64,000 bases of DNA from Myxococcota bacterium (GTDB taxonomy: Bacteria; Myxococcota_A; UBA9160; UBA4427), in assembly GCA_045106235.1 (NCBI GenBank), contig JBGCEJ010000010.1, forward strand, positions 72,991-136,990, read 5' to 3'. The translations under genes and the position numbers were made by a program. Below are positions 2,545 through 22,260 of the stretch, in pieces. The notes beneath the pieces are model-generated. The model was not told where the DNA came from. It was given only the letters and a program-made list of their open reading frames with translations, and did no database searches. Position 1 is the stretch's first letter, and every line of letters starts with the position of its first letter.

Positions 2545-3464
2545 GCGCGTCGGCGGAGCGAGGCGAGGCCGCATGGCTTAGCCAGCGCGAACGCGGGACC
2601 GTTGCGGCGCTCCGGCTTGCCACGATCTGGGCGACGCTTCTCGGGCGTCGATTGTCGCGGCCGATGGTCCATTTGATCGCGCTCTACTACGCCCTCTTTG
2701 ACAAAGAGGTGAAGCGCGTCTCTCGGGCTTGGTTCACTCGGTTGACGGGAGAGGCGCCCACATTCAGTCGCGTCTATCGCCATATTCTCACCTTTGTGCA
2801 GGTCACGCTCGATCGGCTCTATTTTACTTCGGGACGTGTGGCGCCCTTCGCGATCACGCGGACCGGCAACCAGCATTTGCTCGCGCAAGCGCGCTCGGGC
2901 CAAGGGGCGATTTTGCTCGGCGCCCACGTGGGGAGCTTCGAGGCCATGCGCGCTTCGGGCGGTGACGAGCGGATGCCGATCTCGATCGTGGGGACCTGGG
3001 AGAACGCAAAGATGATCAATGCTTTGTTGAGTTCTTTCGATCCCGAGATGCCGGCTCAGGTAGTGCATACCGGAGGTGATCCCGTGAGCCTTGCGCTCAC
3101 GTTGCGGGAACGGATTGCGGAGGGGCATCTGCTGGCGATGATGGCAGACCGAGTGGGGCCGAACGAAAAAACCGTCGAGGTTGATTTCTTCGGCGAGAAG
3201 GCGTCTTTTGCCGCGGGTCCCTTTCTGCTGGCCTCGGTTCTGAAATGCCCCGTCTTCATTGTTTTCGGGATTTATACCGAGCCGAATCGCTACGATTTGT
3301 ACTGTGAACCCTTCGCGGAGAAGATCGTTTTGCCGCGAGGGGACCGCGAAGCAGGGCTGGAAAAAGCCGTGACGGAGTACGCCGCGCGTTTAGAGAGCTA
3401 CGCTCGTAGGGCGCCCGAGAACTGGTTCAACTTTTTCGACTTCTGGGAGAAGCCGACTCGATGA
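2541..3464 (+). CDS. LpxL/HtrB-like lipid (lysophospholipid/lipid A type) acyltransferase
   Basis: In-frame ATG at 2541 overlaps the upstream stop. GAILLGAHVGSFEAM fits the HX4(D/E) acyltransferase motif. Size and position match the acyltransferase of aryl-polyene-type clusters. Confidence 0.7.
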   Translation: MSASAERGEAAWLSQRERGTVAALRLATIWATLLGRRLSRPMVHLIALYYALFDKEVKRVSRAWFTRLTGEAPTFSRVYRHILTFVQVTLDRLYFTSGRVAPFAITRTGNQHLLAQARSGQGAILLGAHVGSFEAMRASGGDERMPISIVGTWENAKMINALLSSFDPEMPAQVVHTGGDPVSLALTLRERIAEGHLLAMMADRVGPNEKTVEVDFFGEKASFAAGPFLLASVLKCPVFIVFGIYTEPNRYDLYCEPFAEKIVLPRGDREAGLEKAVTEYAARLESYARRAPENWFNFFDFWEKPTR

Positions 3465-20842: not shown

Positions 20843-20912
20843 CGCGCGTCAGACTTTGCGTCGCGCTACGCTTTCGCCGGACCGCGTGAGTGGGTCTGGA
20901 GGGAGTGAAGCG

Positions 20913-21359
20913 ATGGAAACGAACGATGTGGTGGCAGATTTTCGTGCCCAAAATCAGGACGGCAAAGAGGTGAGCCTCTCCGGGCTGCTAGAGGGTGGCC
21001 CCCTTGTGCTCTTCTTCTATCCGAAGGCGATGACCCCGGGTTGAACGCGCGAAAGCTGTCATTTCCGCGATTTGGCCGCTGAGTTCGAGGAACTCGGTGC
21101 TCAGCGCGTGGGGATCAGCGCCGATCCGGTGGATCGGCAAAAAGCGTTCGACGACAAAAATGGTTTGGGCTTTCCGCTGCTTTCGGACCCAGGTCGCGAG
21201 GTCGCGAAGCTTTTCGGGGTGAAGCGGTTCGGTCCACTCCCGAGCAAGCGAGCGAGTTTTGTGATCGATACGGACCGGAAGGTCCTGGGTGTGATCCGAA
21301 GCGAGATGGACATGGACGGACACGCGGATCAGGCGCTTTCGATTTTGAAGTCGCGCTAG
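20913..21359 (+). CDS. bcp: Bcp/PrxQ-type peroxiredoxin with in-frame TGA (candidate selenocysteine) at the peroxidatic Cys position
   Basis: ORFs 20856..21044 and 21072..21359 are in the same frame, separated only by TGA at 21042-21044. The joined sequence reads FFYPKAMTPG-U-TRESCHFRD, matching the Bcp motif PGCTxExC with the resolving Cys kept 5 residues downstream. ATG at 20913 follows GGAGGGA. Confidence 0.75.
21048..21069 (+). promoter_or_regulatory. candidate SECIS-like hairpin downstream of the peroxiredoxin UGA
   Basis: CGCGAAAG / loop CUGUCA / UUUCCGCG gives 7 pairs plus one A-C mismatch. The apical loop contains GU about 17 nt from the UGA. Confidence 0.4.
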
Positions 21360-21412: not shown

Positions 21413-21697
21413 CTAGTCTTCTGACTGGACGACCACGACCACGTCGCGAATCTCGGGGGCTTGGTCCGCGAGCATATCCTTCATCATGCCGGCCAGCGCA
21501 TTGGGCTCCATGATGCATTCCACGCATTGTTCATTCACGCCCTTGGCGTAGGCGACGCTGAGCTGATCGCCCTCGATTCGAAGCAGGGACACGCTGCCGC
21601 CGTCGGGTTTTACGATTTCGTCGAAGGCTTCGATCACGGCCTGGACGGCGGGGTTGACGGGGGGGAGGGCTGATGTCTCGGTCGCGGACGCACTCAT
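21413..21697 (-). CDS. NifU-like (Nfu-type) CxxC domain protein
   Basis: 94 aa. It has a KPDGGSVSLL...segment followed by QCVECIM (CxxC), as in NifU C-terminal domains. The start overlaps the upstream stop (ATGA at 21694-21697). Confidence 0.7.
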   Translation of the reverse strand: MSASATETSALPPVNPAVQAVIEAFDEIVKPDGGSVSLLRIEGDQLSVAYAKGVNEQCVECIMEPNALAGMMKDMLADQAPEIRDVVVVVQSED

Positions 21698-22260
21698 CGA
21701 TCGGCTCCGGTTTTTCCGCAGAGGCGTTCGATCACCGTTGGCGCGACCGCTTCAGCGAGGTTTTGGATCTCGGAATCGCTCCACATCGCAGTGGGGATCC
21801 AAGGGTAGTCGACGACCACGAAATCGTAGTCGGGATGTCCTGAGAGTCGCGCCATGGACTGGGCTGATCCGCGGACGGCTTCATGAATGATCGGGACAGC
21901 GGCAATGCCGGCCCACTCGAGTTCGATTGCGTCGCGCAAACTGCGCGCACTGCAGGAGCCTCAACCCCCGAAGCCGGTAATCGCGACCGAGACCTCCGAA
22001 GTGAGGCGCGCCCAGTCTGTGGGTTCCGGGGGGACGGAGACGCCGGCTTTAAGGACGTGGACCGAGGCGCTCGGGTTGGCCCGTCGCTCGATTTCGTCGC
22101 CGAGGGCGAGCATGAAATCTTCGCTGCGCCCGAGGCCGTTGGTCACGAGGCCGATCACTTGGCCGTCAAGGCTTGCGGGCCGGGAAGCCAGTTCGCGGTC
22201 GCCTTTGCGTTGGAGTGGTCCGCTTGTCGGATCGAGTCCGATGAGACTTTTTTGCGTCAT
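21694..22260 (-). CDS. UGSC-motif protein with in-frame TGA (candidate selenoprotein)
   Basis: Minus-strand ORFs 21961..22260 and 21694..21939 share one frame. The only interruption is TGA at 21963-21961. Read-through gives ...AITGFGG-U-GSC-SARSLRDAIELEW (a U-x-x-C redox motif). There is no SD before the TTG that opens the second ORF. GAAGGAG precedes ATG 22260. Confidence 0.7.
21931..21950 (-). promoter_or_regulatory. candidate SECIS hairpin downstream of the UGSC-gene UGA
   Basis: On the minus strand, 10 nt after the UGA: GU(G)CGCGCA / loop GUU / UGCGCGAC. This is an 8-bp GC-rich stem with one bulged G and G/U in the apical loop. Confidence 0.5.

Follow-up and report, generated by a model that had tools for sequence, protein, structure and literature searches.

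A peroxiredoxin gene on the forward strand of a Myxococcota genome (20913..21359 of the window, which is the whole 64,000-nucleotide stretch of DNA analysed here) is predicted to incorporate selenocysteine (Sec) at an in-frame UGA that would be recoded through a displaced, 84-nt two-hairpin RNA element. In this model, the distal hairpin H3 would provide the SelB site and the proximal hairpin H2 would bridge the distance between the UGA and H3. The probability of this whole explanation was put at roughly 0.75.

The reading frame extends from an ATG at 20913, with a Shine-Dalgarno sequence recognized by inspection 10 nt 5′ of it (GGAGG, 20898..20902, + strand), to a TAG at 21357-21359, and its 148 codons are interrupted solely by the TGA at 21042-21044. 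With this TGA read as Sec (U), the complete coding sequence specifies a 148-aa selenocysteine peroxiredoxin of the BCP/PrxQ type, as assigned by family match and dN/dS, with the active-site stretch FFYPKAMTPG-U-TRESCHFRD. The sequence-only reading had proposed that the frame was continuous across the TGA and carried this motif, and both the sequence and its translation bore this out. Translation with table 11 resolved the gene into two short ORFs. The full-length homologues found in a large protein database were Cys forms only, because table 11 splits the Sec gene at the TGA; gene callers divide the Sec-containing peroxiredoxin in the same way, and annotation pipelines thus miss the gene.

The translated protein matched the Pfam family AhpC-TSA (PF00578) over residues 5-124 of 148 (122.6 bits, cut-off 26, E 1.2e-35), and it also matched Redoxin. 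The best NCBIfam models were the Bcp thiol peroxidase and PrxQ, both under their equivalog cut-offs: the E. coli-type Bcp equivalog NF006960 scored 94.9 bits (cut-off 140) and the Deinococcus PrxQ equivalog NF053650 scored 86 bits (cut-off 260). As judged from these sequence matches, the protein is a member of the BCP/PrxQ subfamily and is not an equivalog of either the E. coli-type Bcp or the Deinococcus PrxQ.

Alignment with 13 full-length homologues placed U44, encoded by the UGA at 21042..21044 (+ strand), in the invariant peroxidatic Cys column, which confirmed the earlier proposal that the TGA occupies the peroxidatic Cys codon of a Bcp/PrxQ peroxiredoxin. The PxxxTxxU motif reads P37-K-A-M-T41-P-G-U44, and residues P37, T41, G43, C49 and R113 were invariant among the 14 aligned sequences (this peroxiredoxin and the 13 homologues). 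R113, located within KRxxFVID and also aligned in the solved structure 5epf_A, is presumably the catalytic active-site arginine, an assignment made from family knowledge. A resolving cysteine five residues downstream of the Sec had also been described. It is present in this protein, by translation and alignment, as Cys49 (TGT, 21057..21059, + strand; U-x4-C), in a CP-x4-CR type arrangement, but three Sec orthologues have Gly at this position, so the clade does not keep the resolving Cys throughout. By analogy with the family, the U44 selenolate would attack the peroxide, the resulting selenenic acid would be resolved by Cys49 to form an intramolecular selenenylsulfide, and a thioredoxin-like reductant would regenerate the enzyme, which would make it a thioredoxin-dependent peroxidase.

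The genome of the host is equipped to decode Sec, as the sequence-only reading had supposed. The assembly (5.8 Mb, 63 contigs, 93% complete) encodes selA (539 bits), selB (271 bits) and selD (253 bits), all above curated cut-offs, and a tRNA-Sec (68 bits, above cut-off) that was confirmed by ARAGORN and has the anticodon TCA (UCA in RNA). TGA terminates 902 of the 2351 long open frames in the host genome, indicating that it is a normal stop codon and that the code is not reassigned. Within the 64-kb window, a tRNA scan found no tRNA, and Rfam models, run across the full 64 kb with gathering thresholds, gave no match; Rfam covers bacterial SECIS poorly. Six other selenoprotein genes of the genome, which has one SelB, were examined, among them a Sec-containing peroxiredoxin paralogue (contig C12) and the UGSC gene next to the peroxiredoxin described here. 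The sequence-only reading had taken the peroxiredoxin together with its UGSC neighbour as support for Sec decoding in this organism. The adjacency is not conserved beyond the closest relative: the peroxiredoxin and UGSC genes were adjacent at 3 of 95 loci, all of them in that relative or in the present genome, and a linkage of such limited extent indicates no functional coupling.

A six-frame search of relatives recovered an orthologue of the peroxiredoxin in 15 of the 31 genomes of the genus, and the Sec codon was a single in-frame TGA in 14 of these and TGT in the remaining one. The Sec form was also widespread in Acidimicrobiales/Actinomycetota MAGs. Motif-bearing loci numbered 86 (59 with TGA, 27 with TGC or TGT), and removal of duplicates left 49 distinct Sec sequences, from Myxococcota and Acidimicrobiales MAGs, and 25 distinct Cys sequences. 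Among the Sec sequences, dN/dS was 0.20 upstream of the UGA and 0.18-0.21 downstream, and the equal values on either side indicate purifying selection downstream and translation of the entire frame. If the gene were a pseudogene, or its TGA a sequencing or assembly error for TGC or TGT, as the one same-genus genome with TGT might be taken to hint, the same codon would not be expected to read TGA in 49 distinct sequences drawn from at least two phyla and from many assemblies made independently. The undiminished downstream constraint, the complete Sec machinery of the genome and the presence of a Sec-specific RNA structure, described below, also argue against that reading; its probability is negligible, and on the sequence data pseudogene and base-calling error are effectively refuted and excluded for practical purposes. 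The earlier argument that a chance nonsense mutation at this codon was improbable is correspondingly upheld by the 14 of 15 same-genus orthologues and the 49 distinct sequences. The gene is almost certainly a genuine selenoprotein gene, for which selenium incorporation is predicted.

Almost all Sec sequences, folded singly, adopted the same arrangement of UGA, 10-nt spacer, 65-nt H2 and 8-bp H3. The spacer (21045..21054, + strand), which separates the UGA from the base of H2, is purine-rich and is predicted to be unpaired; with the UGA in the A site it would lie inside the ribosome. H2 (21055..21119, + strand), the proposed bridging hairpin, was delineated by consensus folding, pair counts and shuffles. 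It has four segments: P1 (GCUG/CAGC), built from two AGC Ser codons; P2 (AUUUCCGC/GYGGGRAU); P3; and the apical P4 (GAGUUC/GAACUC). H3 (21120..21138, + strand; GCCGAUCC-GGU-GGAUCGGC) adjoins H2 without a gap, so that H2+H3 form an 84-nt two-hairpin fold at 21055-21138. H3 has an 8-bp stem and a GGU loop at 21128-21130, with a UGA-to-loop distance of 83 nt, and is proposed to be the SelB-binding SECIS hairpin on the basis of covariation, shuffles and the bacterial SECIS (bSECIS) rules.

Comparison of the Sec with the Cys forms tied this structure to the UGA. Synonymous-site identity was raised from codon -1 to about +38 in the Sec forms and not in the Cys forms. The contrast was sharpest at Ser+4 and Ser+25, where the Sec forms use AGC and the Cys forms TCN, with AGC frequencies of 0.96 versus 0.23 at Ser+4 and 0.96 versus 0.47 at Ser+25. 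The RNAalifold consensus energy was -19.2 kcal/mol for the Sec forms and -1.8 kcal/mol for the Cys forms. Pairing in H3 was 96.9% in Sec forms versus 37.5% in Cys forms, and within the Sec forms 4 of the 8 pairs showed compensatory, both-sided changes (18 cells). The stem occurred as GAUCC/GGAUC, GACUC/GAGUC, GAUCA/UGAUC, GAUCG/CGAUC and GACCC/GGGUC, changes that alter the peptide from DPVDR to DSVSR, DQVDR or DRVDR, and the GGU loop was kept in 48 of 49 Sec sequences. The basal helix of H2 was paired at 94.9% in Sec forms versus 68% in Cys forms, with one-sided (G-U) variation only and no double compensations; as judged from the alignment, the basal helices of H2 are Sec-specific. Pairing in the apical helix of H2 was 83% versus 69%, with both-sided changes in five pairs. 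For four of the five whole-structure measures in this pairing analysis, the observed value was not attained in any of 500 shuffles.

Codon shuffles that preserved the protein were used to compare the Sec (n=49) and Cys (n=25) sequences. For H2+H3 the Sec forms gave a shuffle z of -3.30, with 92% below -2, and the Cys forms one of -0.08; the corresponding values were -3.26 and -0.17 for H3 alone and -2.70 and -0.12 for H2 alone, the independence of these statistics being overstated because the MAG sequences are phylogenetically related. A control region further downstream gave no signal (-0.44 Sec, -0.29 Cys). When the first 13 nt were cut away to mimic the footprint of a ribosome whose A site holds the UGA, P1 and H3 had ensemble pair probabilities of 0.90 and 0.93 in Sec forms, whereas each was 0.00 in Cys forms, and P1 and H3 formed together in 44 of the 49 Sec sequences versus 0 of the 25 Cys sequences. 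A single-sequence fold of 81 nt reached a z of only -1.43, and the signal of the recoding element is thus visible only comparatively. These folding comparisons argue that H2+H3 is probably the recoding signal for the UGA at 21042-21044.

The MFE fold of the sequence from this genome also contained a closing helix between UGAAC(G) and (C)GUUCG about 100 nt downstream. This helix was rejected, as only 3-4 of its pairs are possible in the family and these are fixed by the UGA-A and the Phe codons.

The history of the gene was examined on a maximum-likelihood tree of 74 proteins, which needed only three changes between Sec and Cys. The Sec forms made up one large group in which two Cys lineages were nested, one being the same-genus sequence L025 and the other the clade L110/115/119/121. 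H3 no longer pairs in either lineage, although relic AGC/AGU Ser codons have been kept. Decay of H3 in such Cys revertants is expected if H3 is maintained only while a UGA needs decoding. A Myxococcota clade (support 97/85) was placed among the Acidimicrobiia Sec forms, which suggests, from the sequence tree, that the peroxiredoxin gene was transferred across phyla together with its RNA element, in either direction.

The Sec sequence L089, from a Sec-competent genome, has no H3 and instead carries a remodelled hairpin, CGCCG[AGUU]CGGCG, 37 nt from the UGA (dG -7.4). This single sequence was read as SECIS turnover rather than as a refutation.

A UGA can evidently persist without H3 in L089, an observation that counts against the assignment of H3. 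In its sisters L093 and L102, inspection of the alignment by eye indicated that a similar hairpin is possible while H3 is still present.

The bSECIS rules call for a loop of 3-9 nt with a G among its first two positions, an (upper) stem of 4-16 bp, a UGA-to-loop spacing of 16-37 nt and an MFE of <= -7.5 kcal/mol (PMC13188914). A scanner built on these rules was run on the 49 Sec sequences and on the six other selenoprotein genes of the genome. H3 passed the loop and stem rules (3-nt loop, 8-bp stem), the loop-G rule (C-GGU-G) and the energy rule (-12.9 kcal/mol here, family mean -13.0), and failed the spacing rule, its loop lying at 83 nt rather than 16-37 nt. Across the family, H3 agreed with every non-spacing rule in 42-44 of the 49 Sec sequences, at 82-83 nt. 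Fewer than 3 of the 49 contained a rule-compliant hairpin at 16-37 nt according to the scanner, and all six other selenoprotein genes had a compliant hairpin at 16-21 nt.

H1 (21048..21069, + strand), the hairpin noted in the sequence-only reading, does fold in this sequence, but it is not the recoding signal. Its pairing was similar in the two forms, at 87.8% in Sec and 76% in Cys sequences (89.6% with a one-column slide), and so was not Sec-specific. No covariation was found for H1 in the Sec/Cys family alignment, the synonymous-shuffle z was -0.29 in Sec and -0.54 in Cys forms, and RNAalifold gave no consensus structure for nt 0-45 or for nt -9 to 60. Folding analyses indicate that H1 arises as a side effect of codon conservation in ESCHF(R) and is mutually exclusive with the base of H2. 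Were H1, with its GU-containing loop, the functional SECIS and H2/H3 incidental, a loop beginning 10-11 nt past the UGA would have to act from outside the 16-37 nt model and from inside the expected ribosome footprint, and with an energy that, when the family was scanned, did not reach the required <= -7.5 kcal/mol. The folding of H1 here, the GU in its loop and the strengthened H1 of L089 (GAAAGC[UGUC]GCUUUC), which lacks H3, speak for that reading, which is nevertheless highly improbable. H1 was rejected as a SECIS on the z of -0.29, the lack of covariation, the proximity of its loop to the UGA and the failed energy rule.

The apex of H2 (GAGUUC-NNN-GAACUC, loop at about 42 nt) was weighed as the SelB hairpin, with H3 reduced to an auxiliary role as a stabiliser or ribosome pause site. 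In this genome the apex forms a 10-bp stem with a GAG loop (dG -12.0, spacing 42 nt), which agrees with the stem, loop and energy rules and lies just outside the canonical range. In most of the family one of the first two loop positions is a G (alignment read by eye), and the replacement hairpin of L089 arose in the same region. Its loop, however, is a freely varying codon (the x in EFxEL) without a conserved base, and its stem follows from the EF.EL peptide and is also found in many Cys homologues (the 83% versus 69% given above). All non-spacing rules were satisfied by the apex in only 9 of 49 Sec sequences. Assigning SelB to the apex would also leave the invariant GGU loop, the compensatory changes of H3 and its decay in Cys revertants unexplained, and this assignment is unlikely.

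Another possibility is that H2+H3 is tied to the UGA without recruiting SelB, acting instead through ribosome slowing, an RF2 block, mRNA protection or selenium regulation, with SelB recruited otherwise. The Sec-specificity of H2+H3 establishes a link to the UGA and no mechanism, and E. coli SelB binds a SECIS-like element for regulation, at least as that work is cited in PMC13449736. Against such a role, H3 fits the consensus reported for SelB hairpins, N1-G-[G/U]-N-N2, and its loop is closed by a C-G pair (PMC13188914), it resembles the other SECIS hairpins of the same genome, and the rule-based scan found no alternative canonical SECIS in the peroxiredoxin gene. A purely non-SECIS function is unlikely.

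In the favoured model, the UGA at 21042-21044 would be recoded by the SelB/tRNA-Sec system of the host, with H3 as the likely SelB-binding site, a hairpin akin to those that form the SECIS in the other selenoprotein genes of the genome. H2, situated between the 10-nt spacer and H3, would compact the intervening RNA. With H2 looped out, the UGA-to-loop spacing is 83 minus 65, or 18 nt, from which we infer that folded H2 sets H3 at a canonical effective distance. When the UGA enters the A site, H3 would then stand roughly at the canonical distance, at 18 nt versus 83 nt of linear sequence. This proposed looping-out geometry has about an even chance of being correct.

The position of a SelB-type hairpin 75 nt past the UGA conflicts with the rule that the SECIS lies immediately downstream and with the 16-37 nt model (PMC13188914).

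Some bacterial selenoprotein genes are known to fail the 16-37 nt model, and distinct classes of SECIS have been considered probable, although none has been defined (PMC13188914, PMC12013277); bSECISearch fails to detect 13% of the known ones (PMC12013277). In the literature, of which coverage was incomplete, no published interrupted or distant bacterial SECIS was found. The displaced H2+H3 appears to be a new variant of the bacterial SECIS, well supported comparatively by the folding analyses. Whether the peroxiredoxin clade carries an 'interrupted' SECIS class, with a SelB-type hairpin 75 nt past the UGA bridged by a 65-nt hairpin, is an evenly balanced question. Such a class would have a concrete definition in the covariation, the negative control offered by the Cys forms, the decay in revertants and the canonical elements at 16-21 nt read by the same SelB. 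It may be speculated that the displacement followed from the conserved U-x4-C/ESCHFRD peptide, which allows few codon choices where a canonical hairpin would lie; the C12 paralogue, which has no Cys at U+5, encodes its SECIS exactly there. If the model is correct, a bacterial SECIS need not directly follow its UGA and the textbook rule would be relaxed. SECIS-prediction tools would gain a new model, which could account for part of the roughly 13% of genes missed by bSECISearch, and the arrangement would serve as a principle for engineering Sec into recombinant proteins at sites where the surrounding sequence has no room for a hairpin.

At the protein level, the gene product does not depart from known systems. 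Sec-containing peroxiredoxins of the TxxU type (COG1225/PF00578) have been known since 2005 from the Sargasso Sea (PMC1088965) and have been reviewed (PMC13188914), so that, as the sequence-only reading had stated, no new family is involved; the 148-aa protein is a routine member of this one. It shares with the family the AhpC/TSA fold, the PxxxTxxU motif, the peroxidatic Sec, the existence of Cys homologues and an occurrence in marine or aquatic uncultured bacteria. The difference lies in the RNA, since published accounts of the family assume a bSECIS directly after the UGA and here the element is the displaced H2+H3. The best solved relative, PDB 5epf_A (E 5.6e-48, alignable over residues 1-146), has the same active-site stretch, FFYPxAMTPGCTxExCHFRD, with a peroxidatic Cys where this peroxiredoxin has Sec. 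PrxU of Eubacterium acidaminophilum (NF040737) is also a Sec-containing peroxiredoxin and provides the precedent of an experimentally shown selenoprotein (Sohling et al. 2001, as cited in PMC13188914). It belongs to a different peroxiredoxin subfamily: the match to NF040737 was 33.4 bits against a cut-off of 270, and the protein described here is a 148-aa enzyme of the CP-x4-CR BCP/PrxQ type.

The closest comparison for the RNA element is the consensus bacterial SECIS (the bSECISearch model; E. coli fdhF-type). H3 is like it in its 3-nt loop, 8-bp stem, GG at the first loop positions, closing C-G pair and dG of about -13 kcal/mol, and differs from it in its spacing, the UGA-to-loop distance being 83 nt where the model has 16-37 nt, and in the conserved 65-nt hairpin that intervenes. 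The Sec-containing paralogue in the same genome (C12:264269-264697, WWYPKASTPGUTVQGHGFRD) has the same fold, is served by the same SelB and has Sec at the same position, with about 39% identity and no Cys at U+5. Its SECIS is canonical, a hairpin GGUCACGG-GUU-CCGUGAUC located 17 nt from its own UGA.

The H3 element, the 8-bp GGU-loop hairpin proposed to bind SelB, was absent from a single Sec-form orthologue of the Prx gene, L089, located on an Acidimicrobiales chromosome (OZ244202.1, about 3130-3243). Both tRNA-Sec and selA were found in the genome of L089, and a new hairpin, CGCCG[AGUU]CGGCG, was present 37 nt from its UGA. Inspection by eye of the alignment indicated that a similar hairpin could form in each of its sister loci L093 and L102, with H3 retained. 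L089 may represent SECIS turnover caught midway, a reading drawn from one locus.

Cys-containing forms were nested within the Sec clade at two places: L025/L043, from the same-genus genome G014, and L110/L115/L119/L121. In these sequences AGC/AGU serine codons persisted as relics and the pairing of H3 was lost. The nested forms are apparent reversions from Sec to Cys, after which the RNA element decayed. The resolving cysteine, five residues past Sec (U+5), also varied. Glycine occupied this position in three same-genus Sec orthologues (L026, L031 and L032; TxESGHFRD), and the motif of L028 was ECCHFRD. The predicted L026, L031 and L032 enzymes would have to rely on a different resolving thiol or function by a 1-Cys-type (1-Sec) peroxiredoxin mechanism.

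Several MAG records bearing the Prx gene (L048, L053, L088, L101, L104 and L108) carried implausible taxonomic labels, among them Spirochaetaceae on sequences identical to those of the source organism's own Myxococcota genus, 'Bifidobacterium breve' on sequences of aquatic actinobacterial type, Gammaproteobacteria and Gemmatimonadetes. These records are probably mis-binned or mislabelled.

The UGSC selenoprotein gene (window 21413-22260, minus strand) is convergent with the Prx gene (20913-21359, plus strand). This adjacency was present in 3 of 95 loci, all of them in the source genome or its nearest relative. Pairing of the two selenoprotein genes is not conserved.

Of the selenocysteine machinery in the source genome, selB was located at C8:202942-204048. 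A selD match (253 bits; C39:19575-20486) lay within an open frame of 788 aa, more than twice the usual length of SelD, which points to an N-terminally extended or fused protein.

Thioredoxin-fold selenoproteins are abundant in this genome. One in-frame TGA was present in six of its seven Prx/Trx-like matches to the Prx protein, namely the Prx gene itself and those at C12:264269-264697, C21:7145-7489, C24:55860-56138, C14:65355-65705 and C8:201599-201901, the last a WUPYC thioredoxin-fold selenoprotein gene encoded on the strand opposite to selB, at a distance of approximately 1 kb. A canonical SECIS hairpin was located 16-21 nt downstream in each of the five other TGA-bearing matches and in the UGSC gene (window 21694-22260, minus strand). 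Dozens of comparable TGA-bearing matches were found in relatives of the same order.
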